A DNA stretch of 20,000 nucleotides. It comes from an uncultured virus (IMG/VR IMGVR_UViG_3300013137_000014). Taxonomy: Duplodnaviria > Heunggongvirae > Uroviricota > Caudoviricetes. Positions 3,192 through 17,514 of this stretch are shown piece by piece. A program made the translations under genes and the position numbers. Below the pieces are notes generated by a model, which worked only from the letters and a program-made list of their open reading frames with translations, made no database searches and was not told the origin of the DNA. The stretch's first letter is position 1, and each line of letters begins with the position of its first letter. The DNA lies in the IMG/VR virus record IMGVR_UViG_3300013137_000014. The stretch is one strand, 5' to 3'.

Positions 3192-3467
3192 TTATAACCA
3201 TTTTAGCACGCAATATATAGCATATATTGCCAATATTACGTGCGTTTTTTCAAGAAGTATATTGTATATATTTGATATATGCTTCTTGAATGAAATTGCG
3301 TTCAATTCTTCGTTCCAGTTCCCTATTCCCAAACAGGAAAAACTGGTTTTCTTGTTTATAGGTATACTATATTTCATAAAATATAATATACCTCGCATTA
3401 ATCCTAGGAGAGAAGATATGGTATAACCTTTTTCCTTTTTTCTTCTCTCCTCTAATTTGACTCTCAT
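3192..3467 (-). CDS. Hypothetical protein
   Basis: 91-aa ORF filling the gap on the dominant strand and ending at the hairpin. Hydrophobic C-terminus; no recognisable motif. Confidence 0.35.
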   Translation of the reverse strand: MRVKLEERRKKEKGYTISSLLGLMRGILYFMKYSIPINKKTSFSCLGIGNWNEELNAISFKKHISNIYNILLEKTHVILAIYAIYCVLKWL

Positions 3468-3532
3468 TTCCTCATACGTAAGTTTTTCCTCCTTTTCTTA
3501 AAATTATCCCTATCATATTTTAATATATATAA

Positions 3533-3904
3533 TTACATCTTTAAAGATTTATATATATCTGATATTGGTACAGAATTTAAAATCTTTTCAATTTCATCTT
3601 TGTTTTGATAATCTATATCAGATGTACAAGATATTAAGTTATTATTATTTATTCGGCAACTCATACCTAGAGATAATAATATTTCAGATAAAGAAGTCAA
3701 ACAACTAGAATTATTATTTTCTTCACTTGGCATGTCAATATCTAAATGATTTAAACTTTCTTCCATCATTGCTGTATTTATAAATTTTTTTTCCAATTTA
3801 TGGAAGTCTTTTACTTTTATATAATTCTGATTAAATGTAATAATGATTAAATAAACAAAATTTTTTATATCATTAGATATTAAAGAATTTTGTACTGCAA
3901 CCAT
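3533..3904 (-). CDS. Hypothetical protein (true start probably downstream, e.g. MMEESL)
   Basis: ORF on the dominant strand; the C-terminal ~80 aa look protein-like. Start uncertain. Confidence 0.45.
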   Translation of the reverse strand: MVAVQNSLISNDIKNFVYLIIITFNQNYIKVKDFHKLEKKFINTAMMEESLNHLDIDMPSEENNNSSCLTSLSEILLSLGMSCRINNNNLISCTSDIDYQNKDEIEKILNSVPISDIYKSLKM

Positions 3905-5324
3905 TTAGAATGTTATCTCCTTTTAATTTTTCATTTCCTGTAATTAACCAAATAGTTTCAAAATTTTTAAGAAAATTATATCCCTTATAAATATTTTGTA
4001 TATCTGAATAAAAATCTGTTAGAAATAAAATACTACTAACTTTTTCATATTGTGTTAATAATTCTATTTTGTCAAAAACCTCTTTATGAGATGTTCCCCC
4101 TCTTCCCTTGATTCCTTTTTTACGAAAGGCACTCATAATTTGTTCTTCAGAAAATAAAGAATTTATTATAATTGTATCATGAATAATAGTATCATGTATA
4201 TATACATACAATGATTTATAGTACATAAAACTATCACTTAATATACCTATAAATTTTCTTAATTCTTCCTCGTTTATTGAAGCTGAGGAATCTAATCCTG
4301 CAACTAATATAAAAGGAGTTTTATTGTATGATTTTCCTTTTAACCTGGGATACTTTTTTATACCCCTTGTTTTTTTGTATAGGGGTGTGGGAGGAATAGT
4401 TAAATTAGGAAATAACCATGTTTTTTTAGTTTGATTTTGTAAGGGGTATAATAACGTGTTCAAAAGTATTTCATTCCATGGAACCTCAATCTTAAATATT
4501 TCATTAAATATTTTAGTTAAAAATCCAGGAGTTTCTCCTTTGAGTCTGGCCCAAATTGATTGAATGTTTTCCTGCTTTTCTTTTATATTATTTGAAATGG
4601 ATTCTTTTGTTTCACCTTCTTGTATAGGTGGATTATTATCATTTGAAATAATATAACTTTTACCTGTTTCTTTATCTCTAATTATATGAATCTTGGTTCC
4701 TTCAATATTTTCACTGTTCTCAAATTTCAAATTGTGGTTATTGAAATTATTGTCAGATTCATCTACACTATCTAAAGAAGAATTGTCAGATTTTTCTTTT
4801 TGTAATTTATTATCTTTAATACAAAAAGTATTACTAATAAATCTATTTTTTTGGTTTATCAATATATTATAAACATCTTCTGCACTGCAATTTGGATGTT
4901 TAGAATGTATTTCAGGAAAGAATATACATCCTTCAGGAACCTTAATTATTCCCATATTTTCTGCAATTTCTTTACATAATCTGTTAACTACATGATCTGT
5001 AGCCATTTGCCAGATTTCTAGATCTTTGTTTATTGCTCTAAAAATATGGTTATAAAATATATGTAAAATTTCATGGATTGCAACAAATAGGAATTCTTGT
5101 AAGGTAATGTTATTATGTATCAAAAAGACAATTTTTTTTCCATTAGTGAATCCTAAACTAGAGGTGGGAACACCTAATTTTTTACAAACTTTCGTATATT
5201 CTGAAGAAGAACAATAAATACGTTCTGCTGAATAATAAAAGGACGATAATATGGTTAAATCTGGTCTTCCTACAAAAATAATGGTGGCATCAGAAATTAT
5301 CTTATTAATTTTTTCGATACTCAT
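3873..5324 (-). CDS. Putative metallopeptidase + VWA-like domain protein (DUF2201 type)
   Basis: HEILH zincin motif followed by WQMATDHVVN. C-terminal MIDAS LDSSAS, GRGGTS and FLTD. Directly downstream of a MoxR ATPase. Confidence 0.85.
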   Translation of the reverse strand: MSIEKINKIISDATIIFVGRPDLTILSSFYYSAERIYCSSSEYTKVCKKLGVPTSSLGFTNGKKIVFLIHNNITLQEFLFVAIHEILHIFYNHIFRAINKDLEIWQMATDHVVNRLCKEIAENMGIIKVPEGCIFFPEIHSKHPNCSAEDVYNILINQKNRFISNTFCIKDNKLQKEKSDNSSLDSVDESDNNFNNHNLKFENSENIEGTKIHIIRDKETGKSYIISNDNNPPIQEGETKESISNNIKEKQENIQSIWARLKGETPGFLTKIFNEIFKIEVPWNEILLNTLLYPLQNQTKKTWLFPNLTIPPTPLYKKTRGIKKYPRLKGKSYNKTPFILVAGLDSSASINEEELRKFIGILSDSFMYYKSLYVYIHDTIIHDTIIINSLFSEEQIMSAFRKKGIKGRGGTSHKEVFDKIELLTQYEKVSSILFLTDFYSDIQNIYKGYNFLKNFETIWLITGNEKLKGDNILNGCSTKFFNI

Positions 5325-5337
5325 ATTTAGGTACCTT

Positions 5338-6558
5338 TCAGTATTGTTTAATAATACTAAAATCCACCTGCATATTTTTTATAACGCTGGAATCTATTTC
5401 ATGGTTATTTATCATACTTTTTATAATATCTAGTCCTGAAATCAAATTTAATTTTTCGTTAGTAGTTTTTCCACACAAATGATACATCATTTTTATTGAC
5501 AACTCTTTATTATTATTCATAAAATAGTTTAGTACTTTAATAAAACTATTGGATGCATTTTTATCATTTAAATCAAGTGATTTTCTTTGGTAAAACTCAC
5601 TAACTACAATTGTACTATATGCCATTTTTCTAATCGGATCTTCTGGAACATTTAATATTCCTTTATCAAATAAAGGAGATACATCAATATCTTTATAAAT
5701 TAGTAAATATTCAATAAATTTATTTGCAGGACCCGATCCAACACAACCTTCAAGTGCACATCTCATTATATTTTGAAGTTTTGGATCGGTTTTAATCTCA
5801 TCCATTTTATTTGTTTTTTCAAGATTCCATAAAAATTCTGACACTCCTTGATCCCATGATCTTGGACTAGCAAATTGTTCAAAATTAGATTCCTCTGTGC
5901 AAAAATAGGATTCATGGTCAATTATGCTGAAAAAACTACATATAGTATCATGTACTCCATTTGGTACGGCATAATTTTGTAACCAAAATTTAACATCTGG
6001 CTCTGCATATAAGGCCATACATCTATTTCTTATGGCTGTAAATGTAATTCTAGCTCCGGCCATAGGTGTTTCATTTCCAGCTAAAATTATTGCCACATTG
6101 TTTGGTATTTTGTGTCCGCTTATACTATTATGTGTAAATAATTCAAATTGTATGTTTTGCACAGCCTCCGAACATGTATGAATATCATCCATAAAACAAA
6201 TTACCCCGTTCGGATTTTGCTCGGACATTTCCCAAAGTTTACAAACTAATTCTGGCATTGACCATTCAGTAGTAAGAGTTTCTTTTTGAGAAATTATTTT
6301 AATATTACTATCGGGTAAGCCTCCAAATTTTTCTTCTCTTTCTAAACCAGGTTCGCATGGTAAAACTGCAAAACCTTTTTTGGACGCATAATATATAATC
6401 ATTTCTGTTTTTCCAATTCCCGGAGAAGATATAATCCAAGGAATTAAAAATTTTTTGGTAGGATTTTCAATCTTTCTTTTAGCCATTTGTAACGCCAAGA
6501 AAACAGCATTTTGTATAGAGGTTGAAGAATGTTTTATAGTTTTCATTCCGCCATTCAT
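5338..6558 (-). CDS. MoxR-like AAA+ ATPase
   Basis: Walker A SSPGIGKT, Walker B ICFMDD, GHKIPNNVAIILAGN (sensor 1), AIRNR (arginine finger) and ASPRSW. Confidence 0.88.
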   Translation of the reverse strand: MNGGMKTIKHSSTSIQNAVFLALQMAKRKIENPTKKFLIPWIISSPGIGKTEMIIYYASKKGFAVLPCEPGLEREEKFGGLPDSNIKIISQKETLTTEWSMPELVCKLWEMSEQNPNGVICFMDDIHTCSEAVQNIQFELFTHNSISGHKIPNNVAIILAGNETPMAGARITFTAIRNRCMALYAEPDVKFWLQNYAVPNGVHDTICSFFSIIDHESYFCTEESNFEQFASPRSWDQGVSEFLWNLEKTNKMDEIKTDPKLQNIMRCALEGCVGSGPANKFIEYLLIYKDIDVSPLFDKGILNVPEDPIRKMAYSTIVVSEFYQRKSLDLNDKNASNSFIKVLNYFMNNNKELSIKMMYHLCGKTTNEKLNLISGLDIIKSMINNHEIDSSVIKNMQVDFSIIKQY

Positions 6559-6563
6559 TTCGT

Positions 6564-7526
6564 TTAAACCTTTCCTTCCTTACAGATATTCAACAAGTGT
6601 TTTTTATTCTTATTCCAAAATTCCAATGCTCCTTCATTCATCTTATCAATTTCTTCATCCGTGAAATTTTCCCATTCTTCAAATGAATGGAGTTCACATC
6701 CAATTTTCATATGTTCGTCAAGTATCAACACAAACCATCTAAGTCGTCCAGTAACCTGAATGGGTTCCTTCGAGATAGGAACTCCTTTACCATAGGTGGT
6801 ATTCTCGAATTTGGCTTCTCGAAGATCTGTTCCTCGAAGAAATGCTTCTTGAAGGTCTGCTCCTTGAAAATCTACTTCTTGAAGATTTGCTTCTCTAAGA
6901 TTTGCTTCTAGAAGTTTTGCTTTTCGAAGACTTGCTCCTCTAAGATTTGCTCTCCAAAGATCTGCTTTCTCAAGATATGCTTCTCTAAGATATGCTCCTT
7001 GAAGGTTTGCGTATTGAAGATTTGCTTTATAAAGGTTTGCGTATCGAAGGTCTACTACTGGAAGTTTTGCTCCTTGAAGGTTTGCTTTTTGGAGGTCTAC
7101 TCCCCAAAGATCTGCTCCTTGAAGATTCGCTCTCCAAAGACTTGCTCCTCTAAGATTTGCTCTCCAAAGATCTGCTTTCTGAAGATTTGCTCCTTGAAGA
7201 TTTACTCCTTGAAGATTTACTCCTTGAAGATTTGCTTCTCGAAGACTTGCTTCTTGAAGATTTGCTTCTTGAAAATTTACTCCTTGGAAGTTTGCTCCTT
7301 GGAGGTTTGCTCCTTGCAGATCTGCGTCTTGAAGATTTGCTCCTCTAAGATCTGCTTTCTCAAGATCTGCTTTCTCAAGATTTACTCCTTGAAGATTTAC
7401 TTTTTGAAAATGTTCTCCTTGAAGATACGCTTCTGATAAATCTGGAGTAATTCCAGGATTTTCTTTCCTCCATTGATTCCAATTTTCAACCCCTGATTTA
7501 AGAATTGCGAGATGCTCTGAATTCAT
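6564..7526 (-). CDS. Pentapeptide-repeat protein with C-terminal DUF5758-like domain
   Basis: About 40 A(N/D)LxG repeats, then PIQVTG...HMKIGCELHSFEEW...ALEFW, a tail typical of phage pentapeptide proteins. Start is either MNSEHL at 7526 (after AAGGAAG) or 7547. Confidence 0.9.
   Translation of the reverse strand: MNSEHLAILKSGVENWNQWRKENPGITPDLSEAYLQGEHFQKVNLQGVNLEKADLEKADLRGANLQDADLQGANLQGANFQGVNFQEANLQEASLREANLQGVNLQGVNLQGANLQKADLWRANLRGASLWRANLQGADLWGVDLQKANLQGAKLPVVDLRYANLYKANLQYANLQGAYLREAYLEKADLWRANLRGASLRKAKLLEANLREANLQEVDFQGADLQEAFLRGTDLREAKFENTTYGKGVPISKEPIQVTGRLRWFVLILDEHMKIGCELHSFEEWENFTDEEIDKMNEGALEFWNKNKKHLLNICKEGKV
6810..7432. repeat. Degenerate 15-bp tandem repeat array (pentapeptide coding), paralogous to 926-1500
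   Basis: Same 15-nt periodicity. A 34-bp segment at 6823-6856 is identical to 1089-1122. Confidence 0.9.
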
Positions 7527-7580
7527 TTTCTTTTTCTTCCTTTTCATCTATTTTTGCACATCACCAATAATTTCTTTTTT

Positions 7581-8309
7581 TTAAGCTTTCCTAGGAATAT
7601 AATAATTCATAATTGATTGACAAAAAGGCCACATATATATTTTCCAGTATTTTAATTTGTCAATTTCGCTATTATCGATTAAATTAGTTGATTTTCTTTC
7701 AATAATAATATCATATCCTTTTAAATAAACAAGAAAATCACTATTTTTATGAGGTATCAAAAAATATTCTATATTATGTGATTTAAAATAAGCTTGTCTT
7801 ATTTTCTCAATACTTTGACAAATATTTTTTGGACTACTATAATTAATGTGATTGAAAAAATTATAGAAGGAAAGGTTATATGGTTTATTTAATATTCCTT
7901 TTACATACATTTTAGCATCAATATTATAAAGAAAAGATTTTCGATTTGGAGATATGATTAATTTATTTATTTTACCTTCATATCTTATGGGGAGGGATAA
8001 TAACTTAGTATTTAAAATTTTAGAACAAATAAAACCGTCTCTTTGTATAACGGCTATTTGATCCATATTAATATTATTTCTTTGCAAAAAACTCTCAATA
8101 GATAAATCTACCATGGAAATAAAATAGGAAGATAAAGTTGGATTCTTTTTTTGAATTAACCCTATCTTCCTATTTCTTAATTCTTTATCGTCTCTAAAAG
8201 ATTTTGGTAACTCCTCCAATCCCAAAGAATTCATTAAATTAAAATAACAAGATGATATATCATATTGAAATAGATTTTCTTTTATTATTTCTTTACATAG
8301 TATTTTCAT
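7581..8309 (-). CDS. Small family-B DNA polymerase-like palm-domain protein
   Basis: 242 aa with motif-A-like QYDISSCYFNLM, motif-C-like VIQRDGFI and a downstream YVKGI. No exonuclease domain. Confidence 0.5.
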   Translation of the reverse strand: MKILCKEIIKENLFQYDISSCYFNLMNSLGLEELPKSFRDDKELRNRKIGLIQKKNPTLSSYFISMVDLSIESFLQRNNINMDQIAVIQRDGFICSKILNTKLLSLPIRYEGKINKLIISPNRKSFLYNIDAKMYVKGILNKPYNLSFYNFFNHINYSSPKNICQSIEKIRQAYFKSHNIEYFLIPHKNSDFLVYLKGYDIIIERKSTNLIDNSEIDKLKYWKIYMWPFCQSIMNYYIPRKA

Positions 8310-8955
8310 TACATATCGTTTTTAGCAATAATAGTTCTTGTATTTGAATTATCTTAATCATGTAGTATGGATCAACTGTTTCGAAAAATAGTTTATCTAA
8401 CTTTATATGTATATCTTTTAAGGTTTGGCATTCTTCTAAAAGTTTGCCAAATTTCTTGGAAACACTTACTAAAATTACTTTTTCCCTATCAGTTAACCTA
8501 GAATCTGGATTTTTATAATCTGTTAGTTGTCTAAGATTAAAATTTTCTTCCATTACAGTGGAAGGTTTACTAGAAGTTTGTATAAATATAGGATAATGAA
8601 TACCTTCTACATTTTGTGTTATATAAATAATTTTCTTATGATCGTTAAATGTAATATAACAAATATATCTATAGTTATTTTCTTCTTGAAAAATCATAAT
8701 ACCATTATTATAAGATTTATTACAAGTATTATTAATTCGTATATTGGGTTTAACGGATGTACTGGTATTCATTAATGGTATTGAATGTTCTTTAGTACTA
8801 ATTTTTATATCAGTATATTCAGGATATTTTATAGATAAAACAATTGAATTATTATTAAAATTTTCAATACTATCAAATAAGGAATTTATTATTTTAATAT
8901 CATTAGTATAATTACATAAATCATTCCAATTAAAATTTTTTATGGATAGCATCAT
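8293..8955 (-). CDS. Hypothetical protein
   Basis: 220-aa ORF with a GAAGGA RBS; overlaps the next gene; no recognised motif. Confidence 0.7.
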   Translation of the reverse strand: MMLSIKNFNWNDLCNYTNDIKIINSLFDSIENFNNNSIVLSIKYPEYTDIKISTKEHSIPLMNTSTSVKPNIRINNTCNKSYNNGIMIFQEENNYRYICYITFNDHKKIIYITQNVEGIHYPIFIQTSSKPSTVMEENFNLRQLTDYKNPDSRLTDREKVILVSVSKKFGKLLEECQTLKDIHIKLDKLFFETVDPYYMIKIIQIQELLLLKTICNENTM

Positions 8956-8972: not shown

Positions 8973-9575
8973 TTAAAGTTTTAAAAACTCGGATTTAATT
9001 GTACTACATGTTTCAAAGATTCCTCTAACTGCTGATGTAACAACCCAACATTCAGAAGATGTTTCCACTCCACGACATAGCATACAACCATGTTGACCCT
9101 TAACAATTACCCCACAACCTTCAGGTTCTAAAAACTCTACAAAATAATCAACTATTTTTGTAGTAAGATCTTCTTGTAGAATGGGGGCCTTTGCCAACAG
9201 TTTTATCATTCTAGGAATTTTACTTAATCCTACAGCATGTCCTCCTGTTTTTGGCATATATCCAAATGTTGCTTTATAAGATACCGTTTCAAAATGGTGG
9301 GGGCATACTCCATAAGCGTCTATAGGACCTACTTTAATTAATCCATTATAATTAGTCGGAAATGTTTTGGATAATATCTCTTTAATTTCTTTTCTCGGAT
9401 TTATACCTCTGCACTTTTCCAGAATCAAGGCCTTGGCAATTCTAGAAGGAGTTTCATCAAAGTTAACATCATTTTGATAATCCAATTGATAGACTAAAGA
9501 CAAGGCAGGAAAAATATATTTTTCCCATCCTGTTTTAACCATATCTAAAGCAGTTTCAACATTAGTATCATTCAT
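8973..9575 (-). CDS. folE: GTP cyclohydrolase I (FolE)
   Basis: ETPSRIAK, Zn-binding CPHHF, VGLSKIPR, LQEDLT and HGCMLCRGV; strong AGGAG RBS. Confidence 0.95.
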   Translation of the reverse strand: MNDTNVETALDMVKTGWEKYIFPALSLVYQLDYQNDVNFDETPSRIAKALILEKCRGINPRKEIKEILSKTFPTNYNGLIKVGPIDAYGVCPHHFETVSYKATFGYMPKTGGHAVGLSKIPRMIKLLAKAPILQEDLTTKIVDYFVEFLEPEGCGVIVKGQHGCMLCRGVETSSECWVVTSAVRGIFETCSTIKSEFLKL

Positions 9576-9647
9576 ATATATCTCCTATATTATAAAATTA
9601 TGAGTAATACAAAATATATTGTATGAGTTAAAAAAATCACCAAAACT

Positions 9648-12600
9648 TCATTCTTTTTTTATCTGTATTCCAACAGTCTTAAGATTGCTTTCCAATAAAT
9701 CTAAAGAAATCGGTTTTTCTTCATTTAACTCCTCATCTTCCTCATATAATCTGGGGTTTTGTAAAATTTTAGACAATTCTTTATTTTTTAATCCACTAGA
9801 ATCTGAATGAATTGTTAAAAAATCTGTTAGTAGGTTTAAAGCATCATATCCAATTAAAGCCCAAACTTCCATTTCTCCCAATCTGTGGCCACCTTGATTA
9901 CTTTTTCCACCTAGGGGTTGTAACGTTCGTTTGGAATACGGACCAATAGATCTTACAGACATTTTTTCTGTAGCTCTGTGCACTAATTTTAAAAAATACA
10001 TATATCCACAAGCGATAGGATTTGTTATAGTTATTTTAGATTCTGGATCATAAATTTGATATTTATCAATTATATTATTAATATAAAAATCAATTAATTC
10101 TTTTTCAGTCATACTATCTGGATTTTCAGGATAGTTTCTCATTAGTCCAACATAACCCATACATTGCATTAATTCCTCAAAATTTATACTTTGAAAAGCT
10201 GGTTGTATTAAAGTTATATTTTGAATAGCATATTTAATTCCGTGTTCTTTCCGTCTTTTTTCAAAATCATTCAAAATAATTTCCGTTACCCACTTATTTT
10301 TCGTTTTATCAATTATTTCAAGAAACCCTTTAAGAACTTTGCATATTTCAATATCTGAATCTTCTTTTGTCTGATCTAATAAATTATACTTTAATTGGTT
10401 TAAGCATTCAGTTAAATGTAGTTCATATATTTGACCTACATTCATTCTACTAATTATACCAAGAGGATTTAGTATTAATTCAAATTTTCTTCCATCTGGA
10501 GTATTAGGCATAAGTTCATCTGGTAGTATACGACTAATTGTTCCTTTATTACCATGCCTATTGGAAAGTTTATCCCCATTATTCAATTTCTCCATATATA
10601 TAGCAGTAATTTTAATATGACATCCTTTAATTCTCTTACTATCAATAGTATATTTTCCAAGATTTTCTGAAATATTTAATCTACTTAGTGTATTCTCCAA
10701 AATAGAATTTGCTTTTTCTTTTCCAAGATGTGAAATTAATTTTTCTCGTATAGAATTATATCGTTTATTCTCTTTATTTATAAATTTTTCGAGAAATCCA
10801 TTATAATCTTCAATATTACGATTAAAATTATTGGGATATATTTCAATATTAACTATTTTACAATCGACAGGAGCAGTTTTTTCTAAGGGTTCTATATTTA
10901 TCATCTCTAAATCTGCATCCATATCTATAGTTTTTAATTTGGCGAATATTTCACCCTTTTTTAGAAAATCATTAATTTCTGGTAGGGGTTTATATGTTCC
11001 AGAATCTAAACTAAGTAATACTTGAGTTGAATCAATATCAAATGATAAATCTACAATATGTATACTCTTAAATTTTTCACTGGCTGATTTACTAATAATT
11101 ATACCATCATCAACATTCCAACCTTTCCAAGAACAAATTCCAACCAATAAATTTCTTCCTAATTGTAAACTACCATTTCTTAAAAATAGAGATTCACAAA
11201 GTATTTCTCCTTTCTGAAATGTATCTCCCTCATTCTTTTTAGGTATCATATAGTCCATTATACTTTCTTTAAAGAAAGGTTTTATATATGCACCTTCATT
11301 TAGATTATCATAATGAATAATCATTCCATCTTCATTTAAAGTTAATACCTTACCATTATCCTTTGCCCGACATAAGAAAGTACCACTATCAACAAACATA
11401 TCTTCTGTACCAGATCTAATAAGAGGTTCATCTGTTTCAGATAATAATATTGTTTGTTTAACTTGACTAGAAGCCATTTGTAATCGCGTTTGATCATCAT
11501 TACATAAAAATGGAGTTAAAGAAATAGGATAACTGAAAACAATATCTTTATTGGGTTCTACAAATAGTCCTTTTTCATTTATGACACAGTTGGGAACTAA
11601 ATTTAATATTACTCCACAACCTTCTCTATCAGGAGTATCTGCAGGACAAATAAATCCTTTTTGAGAATCATCTAATGTTCGAAGATGTGTAGGAACATTT
11701 TCTTTTTTGAATCCACCTGGTCCGGTAAGCGATAATTGCATTAAAGATGCAATTTCAGAAACAGGGTTTATGCAAAAATTAAAATGAATGATATCTGATA
11801 CATTACATTTTTCTAAAATTATATTTTGATGAATTCTAAACGTACTTTTTTTACTATTCTTTACTGATACTAGCATATCATAAACTTTTTTAAGTAAAGG
11901 ACTTATAATGTATTCAAGAAATCTAATTCTTTTATATTTTAAATCAGTATCTGAACGAGGTCCTTCATATAAAGCAAATAGTATTTCAAATAAAATAGAA
12001 TTGGTTTTAAAATAATCATGAATAAAATAATCCATATAATATGCTAATGTTAAGGAGAAAATAATACTAGATCCTTTTTTCTCCTCATCATTTTTAATCG
12101 TACTAAAATATTTTCCTACATGGCATATTAAATCTGTTTTGTTAGAATTATTCCATATATTATAACAAGAGCTTATAATAGATTTTAAATTTTCATTAAC
12201 AATATTGGGATCTAATAGTGTTAAAAAATCATCTAGTTCTTGTTTTGTATGATTTGCACATATTAGTAATGGAAGACTAATTTTTCTTCCAAATAGAGAA
12301 ACATAATATTCATTATCTTTATGATTTTTATTAATATTAAGGGATAAAATATTAGTTCTAAGTTTAATCTGGTTTGGTTTGTTAAACCTATATATAATTG
12401 GAAAATCATATAACTGTAGTACTGGTATTTTTAAATGTCCACCAATATAGAAAAATTGATTTTCAATCAAATTTGGAATTTTTAAGAAAAATTCCTGTTT
12501 CTTGTTTTTATCATCCTCAACAATGATTTTTAATAAACTTAGACTATTATTTTTTAATTCCTCATGTCTTATTTTTTTTAATTCCATCCACTCACAAAAT

Positions 12601-12722
12601 ACTACCTTCCATCCAAGAATATCTGTTTTGTTAAATATTTTAATTATACAATCTTTTAAGTTATCTGGATTCCATTCTTTAGCTCTAAAATCTAATAAGG
12701 TTGTTTGAAATCTGGGATCCAT
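9648..12722 (-). CDS. rpoB: DNA-directed RNA polymerase beta subunit (phage-encoded, compact)
   Basis: GPGGF, ICPADTP, GRNLLV...GWNVDDGIIIS, GDKLSNRHGNKGTIS, LNPLGIISRMNVGQ, GYMYFLKLVH, RSIGPYS...QPLGGK..GGHRLGEMEVWAL. Confidence 0.97.
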   Translation of the reverse strand: MDPRFQTTLLDFRAKEWNPDNLKDCIIKIFNKTDILGWKVVFCEWMELKKIRHEELKNNSLSLLKIIVEDDKNKKQEFFLKIPNLIENQFFYIGGHLKIPVLQLYDFPIIYRFNKPNQIKLRTNILSLNINKNHKDNEYYVSLFGRKISLPLLICANHTKQELDDFLTLLDPNIVNENLKSIISSCYNIWNNSNKTDLICHVGKYFSTIKNDEEKKGSSIIFSLTLAYYMDYFIHDYFKTNSILFEILFALYEGPRSDTDLKYKRIRFLEYIISPLLKKVYDMLVSVKNSKKSTFRIHQNIILEKCNVSDIIHFNFCINPVSEIASLMQLSLTGPGGFKKENVPTHLRTLDDSQKGFICPADTPDREGCGVILNLVPNCVINEKGLFVEPNKDIVFSYPISLTPFLCNDDQTRLQMASSQVKQTILLSETDEPLIRSGTEDMFVDSGTFLCRAKDNGKVLTLNEDGMIIHYDNLNEGAYIKPFFKESIMDYMIPKKNEGDTFQKGEILCESLFLRNGSLQLGRNLLVGICSWKGWNVDDGIIISKSASEKFKSIHIVDLSFDIDSTQVLLSLDSGTYKPLPEINDFLKKGEIFAKLKTIDMDADLEMINIEPLEKTAPVDCKIVNIEIYPNNFNRNIEDYNGFLEKFINKENKRYNSIREKLISHLGKEKANSILENTLSRLNISENLGKYTIDSKRIKGCHIKITAIYMEKLNNGDKLSNRHGNKGTISRILPDELMPNTPDGRKFELILNPLGIISRMNVGQIYELHLTECLNQLKYNLLDQTKEDSDIEICKVLKGFLEIIDKTKNKWVTEIILNDFEKRRKEHGIKYAIQNITLIQPAFQSINFEELMQCMGYVGLMRNYPENPDSMTEKELIDFYINNIIDKYQIYDPESKITITNPIACGYMYFLKLVHRATEKMSVRSIGPYSKRTLQPLGGKSNQGGHRLGEMEVWALIGYDALNLLTDFLTIHSDSSGLKNKELSKILQNPRLYEEDEELNEEKPISLDLLESNLKTVGIQIKKE

Positions 12723-12740
12723 ATAATTTTTTTTCCTTTC

Positions 12741-14519
12741 TTATAATCTAAATAAAGACGACAGAGAAGATTCTACATCCTCTCTGTTTCGAACTAGACC
12801 ATCTATTATTTTACCTTTTAGATCTGAAAATGCACATCCTACTAACCAACTACTCATATAAGGTATTTTTAATATACTATTCCATTCTCTGGTGATAGAT
12901 GTATGATCTCTATTTTTAATTGTTCTCCATAATTTGTTTTGATACCAAATCATACAACTAATCAATACTTCAACATGAACCATATAAAGAGATCCATGAT
13001 TTATCAATAATTGAAATAATCCTTTTACTAAATTTTCAGGTTCATACGGAGAAGTATATTCTTGAGGTTTATGCAGAAATGTATTAATAATGCTCATATC
13101 TGAAATAATATCATTATTGCCACCTTTGGATGTTGTAGAACTAGCAACTCCAGATAGATGGAAAGTTCTTAAAACTAATTGAGTAAGTTTTTCAGAAATA
13201 CTATGTGTGGCAATGATTCCAATTTGAGTGGTATTAATTTTTTTATAAAATTCTCCATAACACTTTTTGCATATTTTATCGGATTTACAGAAAATGGGAG
13301 ATCTTAATTTTAAGAATTTAAATTTTTTAATAAATTCTTCTTCTTGTTTAGGTTTCATTTCTTTTATAATTTTTTCTTTACCAACTTCTGGATCTAAATA
13401 CCATCTAAATTTTAAACCATGTAGTATTTTTCTAGATGCCTCAATATCCTCTATCCGCTCACCGTCAATATTTTTATAACACATTAATTCTAAATTTAAA
13501 TAGTCATTAGTAAAACAATCTTCAACATCACCTAATTTACAAAATTGAGTACTATATATTAATTGTCTTGTTAAAAATCCACTATCTCCAGTTGATGTTG
13601 CTGTATCTAGTAATCCTTTACGACATCCCCAACAACTATCAAAAAATTCATCAGGAGTTAAACCTTGAACTAAACTTGATTTAATTAAATTCGGCCTAAT
13701 TTGATTATTGTGATCAGCCACATAACCTCGAGAAAAAACTAATTGCTGAGCCTGTAGCCAACTGCCTCTTGCTCCAGAATCAATAAATACAGCAAAAGGC
13801 ATTTTTTTCATCAACGAATGTAAAAATTTATCATGTTTAATAAATTTTATATCTTCTTGATAATTGCCAGATAAGTTATTAGCAATTTTAACTAATTCTG
13901 GATTATATATATCTTTTAAAGATAATGTATATCCATCTAAAGTACATTTAGCAAAACCAATAGTTTTTATTTTATCTAGAATTCTAGATAAACTAGCATT
14001 ACTAATGGTACTCTGTATTCTATTTAAGATATGATTAAGTAACCCTTTTTCAATATATGAATGCACTATAGGATAATTTTTAGGTAATAATTCATTGAAA
14101 ATTATTTGTCCTTCCGTCAATAATGCAGAATCCTCTTTTTCAATAATATTACCATCATCATCTGTATATTTAATTATTTTTTTGTATTCTCGTTTTTCTT
14201 CATCATTATCTTTTGTTAAACTATAAATTCCCAGTACGGTATCTTGGGTAGGAGTTGCTACTGGTTCTCCATTTGCTGGAGAAACTAAATTATTAGTTAT
14301 TAGTATTTTATCGAGAATATCTTGTTTTGATCTATCTGTTAAAGGAATATAAAATGCCATACAATCAAAAACAGATACTCCATCTTCCGTTAAGAAAGTA
14401 TAAAAATCCTCAACAGTAAAATCATAAGCAGTATTTTTTGTTTCGTCTTTTTCAATAATTAAATCTGAAACAGGTATTAGCTTGAGATTTTTTTGTTCCA
14501 AATATTCTCTAGTTATCAC
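12741..14519 (-). CDS. rpoC: RNA polymerase beta' C-terminal part fused to an N-terminal split C-intein
   Basis: After ~52-60 aa of intein-like sequence: CMAFYIPL...NNLVSPANGEP..TPTQDTVLGIY, SGARGS, bridge helix RKGLLDTATSTGDSGFLTRQL, Zn site RSPIFC...ICKKCYG and trigger loop TQLVLRTFH. GTG at 14519 lies 7 nt after an AAGGAG RBS; the ORF track starts at ATG 14543. Confidence 0.95.
   Translation of the reverse strand: MITREYLEQKNLKLIPVSDLIIEKDETKNTAYDFTVEDFYTFLTEDGVSVFDCMAFYIPLTDRSKQDILDKILITNNLVSPANGEPVATPTQDTVLGIYSLTKDNDEEKREYKKIIKYTDDDGNIIEKEDSALLTEGQIIFNELLPKNYPIVHSYIEKGLLNHILNRIQSTISNASLSRILDKIKTIGFAKCTLDGYTLSLKDIYNPELVKIANNLSGNYQEDIKFIKHDKFLHSLMKKMPFAVFIDSGARGSWLQAQQLVFSRGYVADHNNQIRPNLIKSSLVQGLTPDEFFDSCWGCRKGLLDTATSTGDSGFLTRQLIYSTQFCKLGDVEDCFTNDYLNLELMCYKNIDGERIEDIEASRKILHGLKFRWYLDPEVGKEKIIKEMKPKQEEEFIKKFKFLKLRSPIFCKSDKICKKCYGEFYKKINTTQIGIIATHSISEKLTQLVLRTFHLSGVASSTTSKGGNNDIISDMSIINTFLHKPQEYTSPYEPENLVKGLFQLLINHGSLYMVHVEVLISCMIWYQNKLWRTIKNRDHTSITREWNSILKIPYMSSWLVGCAFSDLKGKIIDGLVRNREDVESSLSSLFRL
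14364..14519 (-). other. Split intein C-fragment (IntC) with atypical Phe-Asp terminus
   Basis: Block F TAYDFTVEDFYTF and block G EDGVSVFD, followed by Cys+1 (TGT at 14361-14363) exactly where beta' homology resumes. Confidence 0.88.
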
Positions 14520-14766
14520 CACTTGACTCCTTTTTAAACCCATTTATTATTCTAATTCGAATTTTTTCATAAAACAATGTACCAAATGAAACAAATATTA
14601 TGAAAATTAGAAATAGTAATACTAATGGCCATACAATAATGAATACAATAGACCAAATATAGTCAATATCCCTAGAAGAATCAGATTCTGCTAAAATAAT
14701 AAATAGCCATAATGTAAATAATATTAAACAAATGATACCATAAATGAATATAGTAAATTCATACAT
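14509..14766 (-). CDS. Small membrane protein (two predicted TM helices) between the split-intein halves
   Basis: 85 aa with two long hydrophobic stretches (FTIFIYGIICLILFTLWLFIILA; IWSIVFIIVWPLVLLFLIFIIFVSF). Starts 1 nt after the IntN stop and overlaps the IntC start. Confidence 0.75.
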   Translation of the reverse strand: MYEFTIFIYGIICLILFTLWLFIILAESDSSRDIDYIWSIVFIIVWPLVLLFLIFIIFVSFGTLFYEKIRIRIINGFKKESSGDN

Positions 14767-14767
14767 T

Positions 14768-16378
14768 TTAATTTCCTTTTTGAATAAAATATTTCCCTTC
14801 TGGATTATTAATTAATTCTTGAGGAGTTATTCTCTTAATAATTTTTTCATTCTCATCAAAAACGATTAATGAATGATCTTTAGAAGACCAAAAAGGTTTA
14901 AATCTATTTTCTTTATCTGTAATTTTATATAACTCTAAATTTTCATGTACACTATAATCTAAAATTTTCTTCCATTCTATATCACCAGTCTCAAGATTTA
15001 TTGCTTGAATTTTTAAATTTTCTACAGGAGAATAATGAGTAACTTTCACATTATCTTCTCTAATTTTTTCTGAAGTTTTATTAAATGTAAAAATTTCATT
15101 AATATCACAGATTGAACAATTTAATGATTCAGAAATAATAGTATCTAAAATTGTAACATCACAAACAACACTATCTCCATCAAAATCAGCATTATATGGA
15201 GAAGTGGCTAATGGGGGAATTTGTATAGTATTACCTTTAGTTGGTTTAATCTTAAAACCTAATATTGATAGTCTATGTAAAGAAGGTTGTCTATTTAAGA
15301 TACAGACTTTATCTTTACAGAACTCCTCCACAATATCATATAGACCATAATTATGATTTTTAATATGTTCATCAATTGTTTTAATAACAGAGTTATATCG
15401 TTTATTTAATCTTTTGTTAATCAAATAAGGAATTAATTGGGGCTTAAATATCTCCAATAACATAAAATATGGAATTCTACATTCATCTAAATTTAATGTA
15501 GGATTTGGTGTAATAACGGCACGCCCCGAGAAGTCTAATCTCTTTCCTAAAATATTAGAACGAATTAATCCCGATTTCTTACTCAATTTTTCAAAAATAT
15601 GATTATAAAGTTCCAATACCAGTCTATGTAAATGCTTACAATTCATATTATATATCATATCATTTTCTTGACATCTGACGGAAATAGATCGAATACTGTT
15701 ACAACGAACTATAATATCTGTATACAGTCTATTTATGCTATCCAGTACATGTAAACCATTATTATCCCTACCACAAGGTCTACATCCAGGAGGAATAACT
15801 AATACATTACTTATAATCCACTTGTCTTGGTGTTCTCTTACAAAATTTGAAACGGAATCTGTTTTATCTTCAATTAAAAATTCTATATATTTACACATGC
15901 CTTTTACACCAAATAAAATATCTTCTGGTTTTATTAAATTTTGATTTTCAGAATTTATTGCACATAATGTTTTAACTTTTTTGGTTATACCCTTCTTTGT
16001 TATTTCTTCTTCTTTAATATAATATGATTGTTTAAAATCAATCATATTATCTAAAACAGTTTTAGATGAAGATTTAGAAGAGGTTAGTAAATAATAAAAA
16101 ATGGGGTTTAGTATGGGTATTGGAAGTACGATTTTTCCAAAACGTTTTCTTCTAATACTAGATGAGTTAATTTCAGTATGACAAACCTCACATTTTTTAT
16201 TTTTATATTTTCTGCCGGAATATTTTCCGCATAGACATCTATATGAATGTACCGGTCCGAATTTATATACTGAAAATAATCCATCTTTATTATATTTGTT
16301 ATTCTCAATGGCCTTATGACTAGTTACTTCTGGAAAATTTTCACATATTTGATCTATATTAATCAACTCTAGATGCAT
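14768..16378 (-). CDS. rpoC: RNA polymerase beta' N-terminal part (to the catalytic NADFDGD) fused to a C-terminal split N-intein
   Basis: DGLFS..FGP...YRCLCGKY...CEVC zinc finger, VIPPGCRP, GLIRSNILGKRLDFSGRAVI, LNRQPSLHR and PYNADFDGD (15173-15193 for NADFDGD), then 134 aa of non-RNAP sequence. Confidence 0.96.
   Translation of the reverse strand: MHLELINIDQICENFPEVTSHKAIENNKYNKDGLFSVYKFGPVHSYRCLCGKYSGRKYKNKKCEVCHTEINSSSIRRKRFGKIVLPIPILNPIFYYLLTSSKSSSKTVLDNMIDFKQSYYIKEEEITKKGITKKVKTLCAINSENQNLIKPEDILFGVKGMCKYIEFLIEDKTDSVSNFVREHQDKWIISNVLVIPPGCRPCGRDNNGLHVLDSINRLYTDIIVRCNSIRSISVRCQENDMIYNMNCKHLHRLVLELYNHIFEKLSKKSGLIRSNILGKRLDFSGRAVITPNPTLNLDECRIPYFMLLEIFKPQLIPYLINKRLNKRYNSVIKTIDEHIKNHNYGLYDIVEEFCKDKVCILNRQPSLHRLSILGFKIKPTKGNTIQIPPLATSPYNADFDGDSVVCDVTILDTIISESLNCSICDINEIFTFNKTSEKIREDNVKVTHYSPVENLKIQAINLETGDIEWKKILDYSVHENLELYKITDKENRFKPFWSSKDHSLIVFDENEKIIKRITPQELINNPEGKYFIQKGN
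14771..15172 (-). other. Split intein N-fragment (IntN), 134 aa, Ser1
   Basis: Starts SVVCDVTIL directly after DFDGD. Hint-like segment IQAINLETGDIEWKKI...H...LYKI and block B FWSSKDHSLIV ([T/S]xxH). Ends at a stop codon without blocks F/G or an endonuclease. Confidence 0.88.
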
Positions 16379-17150
16379 ACTTTTTCTCCTGAGATTTTAT
16401 AAAGCTTAAATATTTTTTTGGAACCTGATAACAGCTATTTAAATTACAAATTTTGATTCTGTTTATCATATCCCTTAAACCAATATCTGAAAATTCAATA
16501 GTGTATACATTATTAAAACAATAAAAGTTAACTTCATCAATATTAGGATGAATTATTTTATTTAAAATCTGAACATTTAAAATATATTCCATATTATTTT
16601 TATATTCTGTCCAAATCTTTATTTTATTAATTTTATATTTTAAATTAGGAGGAATATCCAATAAATTTCCATTAGTTGTAAATATTTTTTCTAAATAAAA
16701 GGAATAATGAAAATTATATAGACTATAAGAGGAGTAATTTGGAGAAATCTTTTCAATAAATGGAGAAAATTTTATAATTTTATTATTCATTATAGATGTA
16801 ACTTCATTATAAGAATTTAATATTAATTCTGTAATGTTAAAATCATCTATAAATTGTGTTTCTAATTTTGCCAGGAAATTTTTTATGGAGTGAATATCAT
16901 TAATTATACAATATTGTACATTATTATTCATTAATAAACAAGTATATGAATCATTATTTTCTAAAATTTGAAATTTAATATTATTTTTGTTAAAAATAGA
17001 AATTAAATCCCCATAATATTCTGTATCCGATACTAATATTTTTATACCTTTATTTTTTTCTAGAAATTTAAATATAGTTATAAAATTTAATTCAAATAAA
17101 AAGTCAAACTTACTTAATTCATTTTTTGAATGGTTTCTAAATAGTATCAT
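16359..17150 (-). CDS. Hypothetical protein overlapping the start of the beta' N-gene
   Basis: 263-aa ORF with a 20-nt overlap with the beta'N start; no recognised motif. Confidence 0.7.
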   Translation of the reverse strand: MILFRNHSKNELSKFDFLFELNFITIFKFLEKNKGIKILVSDTEYYGDLISIFNKNNIKFQILENNDSYTCLLMNNNVQYCIINDIHSIKNFLAKLETQFIDDFNITELILNSYNEVTSIMNNKIIKFSPFIEKISPNYSSYSLYNFHYSFYLEKIFTTNGNLLDIPPNLKYKINKIKIWTEYKNNMEYILNVQILNKIIHPNIDEVNFYCFNNVYTIEFSDIGLRDMINRIKICNLNSCYQVPKKYLSFIKSQEKKYASRVD

Positions 17151-17164
17151 GTTATACTCTCTAG

Positions 17165-17203
17165 AATTTAAAAGGGGGAAGTACTTTATATACTTCCCCC
17201 TTT
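17165..17203 (-). terminator. Intrinsic terminator-like hairpin
   Basis: Perfect 13-bp inverted repeat aaagggggaagta (17171-17183) / tacttcccccttt (17191-17203) with a 7-nt loop, 11 nt downstream of the Zn-ribbon gene stop. T-rich tail on the minus strand. Confidence 0.75.
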
Positions 17204-17214
17204 CATTAGGTATC

Positions 17215-17514
17215 CTAATGTTCTTTACTATTATCTGGTTTAGTATAAATTAAGCCAGATTGATTTGTTATAGTACCATTCAAAATACCTTTAATTCTAT
17301 CTGGAGTAAGTATATTATGACAATTTGCACATATCATGGGTCCTTGTAATGGACCAATATCTGGTATGCCTTTTTTAGATACTAATGCTGAAATTTTGGT
17401 TAAAATAATAGTGGGAATAAATACTTCTGAACCGCAATTACTGCAAGTAATTAGTTCAGGAATATTTTCTAAGTTATTTTCCGGATGATTAACTACGTGT
17501 AATTTATCGTTCAT
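17215..17514 (-). CDS. Zinc-ribbon protein (CxxC...CxxC)
   Basis: ITCSNCGSEVF...MICANCHNIL. ATG at 17514 follows GAAAGGA; the ORF track extends to 17571. Confidence 0.75.
   Translation of the reverse strand: MNDKLHVVNHPENNLENIPELITCSNCGSEVFIPTIILTKISALVSKKGIPDIGPLQGPMICANCHNILTPDRIKGILNGTITNQSGLIYTKPDNSKEH

Follow-up and report, generated by a model that had tools for sequence, protein, structure and literature searches.

A phage RNA polymerase beta' gene very probably broken at its catalytic loop by a naturally split intein

Fractured genes with split inteins have been described in environmental phage DNA (gp41-1, gp41-8, NrdJ-1 and IMPDH-1), and the hosts named in the accessible part of that work are helicase, IMPDH, DnaE, NrdA, NrdJ, ligase and terminase (Dassa et al. 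2009, PMC2677866). Inteins are usually described as almost absent from the core transcription machinery, and the available part of the same source gives 14 inteins under COG0086, in the large RNA polymerase subunits of archaea (Novikova et al. 2016, PMC4760082). Jumbo-phage papers that name both inteins and RNA polymerase (RNAP) place the inteins, as far as their accessible text goes, in gyrA, PolB, nrdD or terL. Some inteins end in Asp or Gln (Amitai et al. 2004, via PMC4031507), and the latter source treats them as isolated exceptions. Here we analyse a stretch of 20,000 nucleotides (nt), referred to as the window, from the uncultured Caudoviricetes virus record IMGVR_UViG_3300013137_000014, in which the gene for the RNAP subunit beta' is broken at its catalytic motif NADFDGD. 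The beta' gene is in all likelihood a fractured gene, with a naturally split intein of class-1 type between Asp402 and Cys+1 and the two products ligated in trans. A sequence-only reading of this DNA had proposed a split intein at NADFDGD/C whose removal leaves a colinear beta' of 942 amino acids (aa), and evidence from fold, co-folding, comparison of homologues and population data strongly upholds this core.

All genes considered here lie on the minus strand in the list of open reading frames (ORFs) of the window. The first beta' gene (14768-16378) is a 536-aa ORF comprising 402 aa of beta' and a 134-aa tail; PYNADFDGD occupies residues 394-402 and the beta' part ends LATSPYNADFDGD. The tail, taken as the N-terminal intein half (IntN), reads SVVCDVTIL...FWSSKDHSLIVF...KYFIQKGN before the stop, and its Ser1 is Ser403 of the gene. 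The second gene (12741-14519) opens with a GTG at 14519 inside a stop-to-stop ORF of 600 aa (12741-14543). Its first 52 aa, taken as the C-terminal intein half (IntC), contain block F (YDFTVEDFYTF) and end in GVSVFD, with AYDFTVEDFYTFLTEDGVSVFD directly before CMAFYIPLT. A length of 52 aa recurs in four of seven aligned canonically split relatives (51, 44 and 54 aa in the others); from this length and the position of the Shine-Dalgarno box the coordinates 12741-14519 and the sum of 402 + 540 = 942 aa therefore hold. The layout in the sequence-only reading (coordinates, lengths, Ser after NADFDGD, CMAFYIPLT) proved correct to the base. That reading did not mention an 85-aa ORF between the halves. 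The features of the locus are as follows.

15173..16378, minus strand: N-extein, beta' residues 1-402, read from the ORF; its last residue, Asp402, is position -1 and lies in the Mg-binding loop NADFDGD
14768..15172, minus strand: IntN, 134 aa plus the TAA stop (14768-14770), recognised by ORF, block B and co-folding
14509..14766, minus strand: intervening 85-aa ORF, from the ORF list and hydropathy
14527..14532, minus strand: Shine-Dalgarno-like AAGGAG, read directly from the sequence, 7 nt 5' of the GTG
14364..14519, minus strand: IntC, 52 aa from the GTG start, recognised by ORF, Shine-Dalgarno and start reading, alignment and co-folding
12741..14363, minus strand: C-extein, 540 aa of beta' plus stop, beginning at Cys+1 (CMAFYIPLT...NNLVSPANGEP)
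14364..15172, no strand assigned: 809-bp element made up of the IntN coding part, the intervening ORF and the IntC coding part, missing from a near-identical allele

The domains RNA_pol_Rpb1 1 and 2 fall on the first gene and 3 to 5 on the second. In the N-extein, Pfam detects Rpb1_2 (4e-27, residues 278-404) and Rpb1_1 (3e-09), and in the C-extein Rpb1_3 (1.7e-12), Rpb1_4 and Rpb1_5 (8.7e-24). The rpoC_TIGR model of NCBIfam matches both exteins (1.4e-57 and 6e-66) and is interrupted at the junction; in the second gene the gamma-subunit model picks up again at residue 60. Both beta' halves retain all domains and motifs, with no internal stops.

According to structure prediction, the two tails of the window together make up a single Hint (intein) domain. 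When 32 IntN tails were combined into a profile, its sole sequence match in the PDB was the Pab PolC intein (E 0.0022), which extends across block B. One relative (L093) has a contiguous 185-aa insert at the same DFDGD/ site, and in the alignment IntN and IntC of the window tile this insert from end to end. The AlphaFold2 model of the insert reached a predicted local distance difference test (pLDDT) of 85.2 and a predicted TM score of 0.81. When it was compared with the PDB by Foldseek, 45 matches were obtained at E <= 0.001; all those listed are inteins or BIL/Hint-like, the best being 9hth_B, the fused Aes123 PolB1 split intein (E 1.5e-10, TM 0.68/0.74). The proposal that the window halves would co-fold into a single Hint domain was borne out in complex prediction from alignments: IntN and IntC+3 scored 0.90, whereas the best of three controls scored 0.00. 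Of 157 solved complexes, 116 reach the co-folding mark, as do 2 of 215 mismatched pairs. The predicted assembly is one compact unit with 234-239 contacts, in at least 97% of which the runs agree, and the pLDDT of the partner is at least 87. Its interface includes IntN residues 1-7 (Ser1-Thr7) and IntC residue 53, which is Cys+1.

To see how the catalytic positions vary among family members, 1.84 billion representative proteins were searched with a whole-domain profile. It matched 321 clusters at E <= 0.001 (131 at <= 1e-10, 63 at <= 1e-30), and junctions were read from the 150 best of these representative clusters without any residue filter. The residues before the N-junction are DGD in 41/41, and intein position 1 is Ser in 29, Cys in 6, Thr in 5 and Ala in 1. 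At 69 C-junctions the last intein residue is Asp 67 times and Asn twice, and the penultimate one is Gln in 50, Tyr in 7, His in 1 and another residue in 11. The +1 residue is Thr in 56, Ser in 10 and Cys in 3, that is, a nucleophile in 69/69. By comparison, 88 intein-free homologues have Ala (40), Gln (36), Cys (6), Ser (2), Thr (2), Asn (1) or Gly (1) after DGD, so that Cys, Ser or Thr occurs there in 10/88; among 66 distinct intein-free junctions from IMG/VR, Gln follows in 60, Ala in 5 and Cys in 1. The contrast of 69/69 and 10/88 is very strong, though the sequences are related and hence non-independent.

In the window, position 1 is Ser and block B reads Ser-Lys-Asp-His, with Ser replacing the usual Thr of Thr-x-x-His. 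The block-B His (His100) and His76 are invariant in 32/32 IntN sequences and the block-B Ser (-3) is at least 90% conserved. The second of these histidines, IntN residue 76 (YSVHxN), stands 24 residues ahead of the block-B His and may match the "NX" histidine that the available part of PMC10189870 gives as specific to Ser1 inteins. A region-restricted protein search with IntC returned three proteins only, owing to the word index, so the IntC set was drawn from the loci instead; in it Asp33, Thr35, Phe42, Gly47 and the terminal Asp52 are invariant in 11/11, and the block-F Asp (YDFTV) is among them. The sequence-only reading had taken the Cys that stands at the usual Gln position as the +1 nucleophile, in agreement with the C-junctions of the family. 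It had also seen block F/G-like features in IntC: block F stands, and block G needs correction, as the end is Phe-Asp and not His-Asn. Inteins ending in Asp, Gln or Glu splice by the same scheme and several inteins have no penultimate His, according to the accessible part of PMC4031507, where a role of the block-F Asp (F:4) in splicing is described as well.

On this basis a sequence of events can be proposed, the chemical steps of which follow established intein chemistry as set out in the available part of PMC4031507. The two genes would be expressed from one compact operon, each with its own translation. The intein halves, IntN with 134 aa and IntC with 52 aa, would then associate into one Hint domain, and Ser1 would form an ester at the Asp402-Ser1 bond, assisted by the block-B Ser-x-x-His and the block-F Asp. 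Cys+1 would take over the N-extein by transesterification, the C-terminal Asp would cyclise instead of Asn and free the intein, and an S-to-N shift would leave a normal peptide bond. The product would be a colinear 942-aa beta' reading NADFDGD-CMAFYIPLT. As regards transcription of the locus, promoter-like sites in 12600-17300 number 43 compared with 39.4 expected, and a terminator scan of the same region gave none between the two beta' halves. The IntN gene, the small ORF and the IntC gene are probably co-transcribed, because they are tightly packed and have no detectable terminator.

The alternative that survives best is that the Hint halves merely dock, as a non-covalent dimerisation, or cleave, and that beta' works as two unligated chains. 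We regard this as quite unlikely, yet a number of points weigh against ligation. That the two beta' halves are ligated is inferred. As proposed in the sequence-only reading, the tails were searched with Hint/intein profiles, and the outcome was divided: IntN matches Pfam PF14890 (Intein_splicing) at 15.5 bits (E 0.016), short of the 35.8 set as cut-off, IntC matches no intein model of Pfam, NCBIfam finds nothing in IntN or IntC, and PF14890 has no match across the whole 43-kb record; some relatives with a LAGLIDADG domain, on the other hand, pass. The co-folding result may reflect likeness to solved split inteins and is no proof of binding. The canonical C-terminal His-Asn of block G is absent, being Phe-Asp in the window and Gln-Asp in most relatives, and with such an end the branch may resolve slowly or in a way that differs in its details. 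In one relative (P0075), position 1 is Ala and block B is altered. Among the best 120 of 2049 beta' homologues, which also form the basis of the following counts, 24 are naturally split 51-54 residues past NADFDGD with no intein, two of them looking truncated, so a two-piece beta' is viable in this clade and can work as two non-covalent pieces, at least at that later site.

Against mere docking or cleavage stands the +1 residue: true splicing is favoured because this nucleophile is needed only for ligation, and it is present at every C-junction read. Position 1, the block-B His, the block-F Asp and the terminal Asp are also conserved far above the mean column identity of 44%. A domain of ~190 aa at the Mg-binding loop would presumably occupy the active centre, and the polymerase would be inactive until it was excised. 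Finally, contiguous and LAGLIDADG-containing members at the same site must be excised to give a colinear beta'.

The division of the gene was also found outside the source record. Two contigs from two further runs, possibly of the same sampling campaign as the source, span the stretch from the stop through the intervening ORF to the second start: X4 record 5 (13607-15476) with 1 difference and X5 record 12 (13324-15214) with 0 differences. In addition, 32/120 homologues are N-fragments of 518-542 aa with a tail of 129-150 aa past DGD and the same end point. The sequence-only reading had named an assembly artefact as one of the findings that would overturn it; judging by these contigs and N-fragments, the layout is real. 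That we are dealing with a broken gene that yields no functional product, be it a polymerase gene in decay or an artefact of assembly or frameshift, is thus barely credible: the record is a 43-kb fragment estimated to be 14% complete and the intervening ORF is without recognised function, but independent contigs show the same layout, 32 N-fragment clusters end at the same point, both halves are intact, and the gene junctions are tight with a Shine-Dalgarno site ahead of the second half.

A further contig lacks the element. In X6 record 21 (668 nt, depth 3.3), base 14363 is joined straight to 15173, so that the element is skipped exactly, and the junction is in frame (NADFDGD/CMAFY). In this run, which belongs to a different study, habitat label and year, and in its sister run X7, the exteins are covered and there is no depth over 14436-15055. 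The X6 contig is an intein-free allele of a ~99% identical phage, with Cys after NADFDGD. Presence and absence at 14364-15172 is the pattern expected of a mobile intein, and the boundaries match what protein splicing needs. Two other contig joints, 13335>15350 and 15199>15272, were taken as spurious: their flanks are only 21-24 letters and AT-rich.

The weight of the empty-site contig is limited by its depth of 3.3 and by a run whose DNA or RNA kind is only guessed. If the 809-bp element were removed at the nucleic-acid level, as an intron or by programmed DNA deletion, the X6 contig could be a spliced transcript, and the exact joint and the guessed DNA label would fit this. We consider such a removal very unlikely. 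Both tails are in frame with the exteins, conserved as protein and predicted to form one Hint fold; Rfam on 12000-17000 gave no intron or ribozyme, only a miRNA model at chance level (E 0.11). Between the X6 contig and the window there are 5 differences in 668 nt, in the exteins, which mark another strain and not a transcript of the window phage, and neither X6 nor X7 has any cover of the element. None of the 11 runs is listed as RNA.

This site is found in a range of forms. Uninterrupted beta' chains make up 64/120 homologues; loci retrieved from IMG/VR with the beta' profile carry the split intein in 2/80 cases and are uninterrupted in 78/80. The later-split N-fragments measure 416-466 aa (P0017, P0021, P0025 and others) and have no intein-like tail. 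Large LAGLIDADG inteins occur at the same site in beta' or beta-beta' fusions of 2.5-3.1 thousand residues, and some of these pass the Intein_splicing cut-off (for example P0211, 64.3 bits compared with 35.8). Contiguous mini-inteins are present in L093, P0141 and P0142. Intein-free alleles (64/120; X6) and contiguous-intein alleles (L093, LAGLIDADG members), which the sequence-only reading had proposed to look for among related phages, thus exist at the same site.

Canonical splits differ in what lies between the halves. In L001, L008, L083 and L085 it is a free-standing DUF7487 ORF, and together with that of L091 these ORFs are 370-647 aa long; the one of L008 also carries a DUF559 endonuclease-type tail. 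L082 and L088 have nothing between the halves, whereas small hydrophobic ORFs are found in the window (one, 85 aa) and in L094 (three; 6400-7508, plus strand). The 85-aa ORF of the window begins 1 nt past the IntN stop, overlaps the IntC start by 11 nt and has two hydrophobic stretches (Kyte-Doolittle windows >2 at residues 1-29 and 34-67). Family searches with it (Pfam, PHROG-type) gave only weak matches below threshold, and its similarity to small ORFs of L094 is marginal (E 0.008, for the ORF at the same position, and 1.2). It is not a homing endonuclease, and the window has no free-standing gene of that kind between the halves. Atypical splits near the N-terminus also occur: many representatives begin at profile position 16-49, and in L090/L091 a 10-residue IntN after NADFDGD is followed by a 423-aa DUF7487 ORF and then by an IntC of ~164 aa fused to beta', at these coordinates:

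3401-4609, 4745-6013 and 6028-8580, plus strand: atypical split of L090/L091

A selfish mobile intein is the best description of the element, and in the window its homing-endonuclease gene would have been lost or replaced. It looks selfish because a ~99% identical phage is without the element and 64/120 homologues are uninterrupted, and from the existence of that phage it follows that the intein is dispensable. The suggestion in the sequence-only reading that splicing serves as a post-translational switch for phage transcription finds no support, given the same near-identical allele and uninterrupted homologues. We hold it improbable that RNAP maturation is gated by trans-splicing at the catalytic loop and that the intein, instead of being a neutral parasite, serves to time the change from host to phage transcription or plays a part in competition between co-infecting phages. 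Under such gating, the Gln/Phe-Asp end and Asp cyclisation would make splicing slow or condition-dependent, and Cys+1 together with the intein cysteines in the window would confer redox sensitivity.

In the surroundings of the locus, the gene of the beta subunit is uninterrupted and lies directly downstream:

9648..12722, minus strand: beta subunit gene, 1024 aa (Rpb2_6 2.6e-44, Rpb2_7, Rpb2_3)

The source record, a viral fragment, probably derives from a large phage, and the GC content of the window is ~26%. A 483-aa ORF (3873-5324, minus strand), a free-standing nuclease gene ~9 kb from the intein, matches an HNH endonuclease PHROG (phrog_1314, 4.8e-36). The ORFs 1025-1603 and 6564-7547 (minus strand) both match, strongly and in several stretches, the same repeat-type PHROGs of unknown function (phrog_7713, 2.7e-45 and 6.9e-56) and fall in portions of higher GC. 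Among GenBank phages, megablast found nothing similar to 9000-17500, and a scan of viral contigs with a single protein found no relative. Two of the loci carry further intein-like sequences in their RNAP genes. The C-half of beta' in L001 (8674-12036, plus strand) has a second, contiguous intein in the TFHxSG motif (TFHE/SLSRDTC...VFVHN/SGVV), with a canonical His-Asn end and 63.6 bits to Pfam Intein_splicing; the window has no insert at this site (LRTFHLSGVA). In L095 (3364-5862, minus strand) an rpoB-like N-fragment of 832 aa ends ICPVDSPE and continues CLHPDTIV...CSEDHRF... to a stop. By its sequence this tail resembles an N-terminal split-intein half, here in the beta subunit; in this ORF Pfam detects nothing but Rpb2_3. 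The C-half of beta' in L095 is on the opposite strand and begins inside the intein, with no N-half nearby.

Within the full-text literature searched (most subscription journals lie outside its scope), no intein, split or contiguous, at a phage beta' catalytic loop was found, nor a paper that pairs "intein" with "NADFDGD". A paper on Caudovirales with full-length beta and beta' has neither "intein" nor "split" in its text. The notion in the sequence-only reading that a split intein at an RNAP active site may be undescribed is consistent with this; given the scope of that literature, an earlier description may exist.

If ligation is real, the Mg-binding active centre of a multisubunit RNAP forms only after two proteins have been spliced. 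The family is large and tied to a single site, the DFDGD loop of beta', and in one homologous series it displays all stages in the evolution of inteins, among them endonuclease-bearing, mini, split without endonuclease, atypically split and empty-site forms. This makes it well suited as a natural system in which to follow the origin of split inteins. From it one would also learn how the branched intermediate is resolved when an intein ends in Asp, and protein engineering can draw new Ser/Thr-based split inteins from it. The IntN of L090/L091, at 10 aa, would be the shortest natural one seen so far, and the family would provide Ser1/Thr+1 split inteins in number. In annotation, the family accounts for the apparent truncation of the beta' genes of these phages at the catalytic motif.

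Compared with known systems, the locus has the make-up of a fractured gene: there are two genes, the second with its own Shine-Dalgarno box and GTG, and each fuses an extein half to an intein half. As in the accessible part of PMC2677866, a split intein divides the gene of a conserved enzyme at a conserved active-site motif, mainly in phages, and in relatives a free-standing ORF lies between the halves; one locus type devoid of an endonuclease is reported there too. The DUF7487 ORFs of the relatives, one with a DUF559 tail, can be set beside the Vsr-like family of that source by layout, not by direct comparison. Unlike the hosts in the same accessible text, which act in DNA synthesis and repair and among which "RNA polymerase" is absent, the host here is the catalytic loop of beta', and in contrast to those loci the window has a small hydrophobic ORF in the place of the endonuclease and an Asp end instead of Asn. 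Aes123 PolB1 (9hth) and PolB16 OarG (8cpo; PMC10189870, as far as available) are, like the window intein, split inteins from phage or metagenome with Ser1 and class-1 motifs, and PolB16 OarG is atypically split with a very short IntN, similar to L090/L091. With 10 aa, the IntN of the latter falls below the 15-aa IntN that the accessible part of PMC10189870 names as the shortest characterised. The host of Aes123 PolB1 and PolB16 is, however, DNA polymerase B, their end is His-Asn, and identity in structural alignments is 15-17%. Since the window uses Cys+1, it is not cysteine-less, though most relatives have Thr or Ser at +1. Inteins in second-largest RNAP subunits of eukaryotes or viruses have reportedly been described by Goodwin et al. 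in 2006. The archaeal and the eukaryotic or viral RNAP inteins are contiguous, lie in enzymes of cells or of eukaryotic viruses, and none is reported there as naturally split. With 67/69 C-junctions, the Asp end is the rule in the family described here, in contrast to the isolated exceptions in the available part of PMC4031507. In conclusion, the class of split inteins in fractured phage genes is known, whereas the host protein, the insertion site and the Asp end as a family rule are new.

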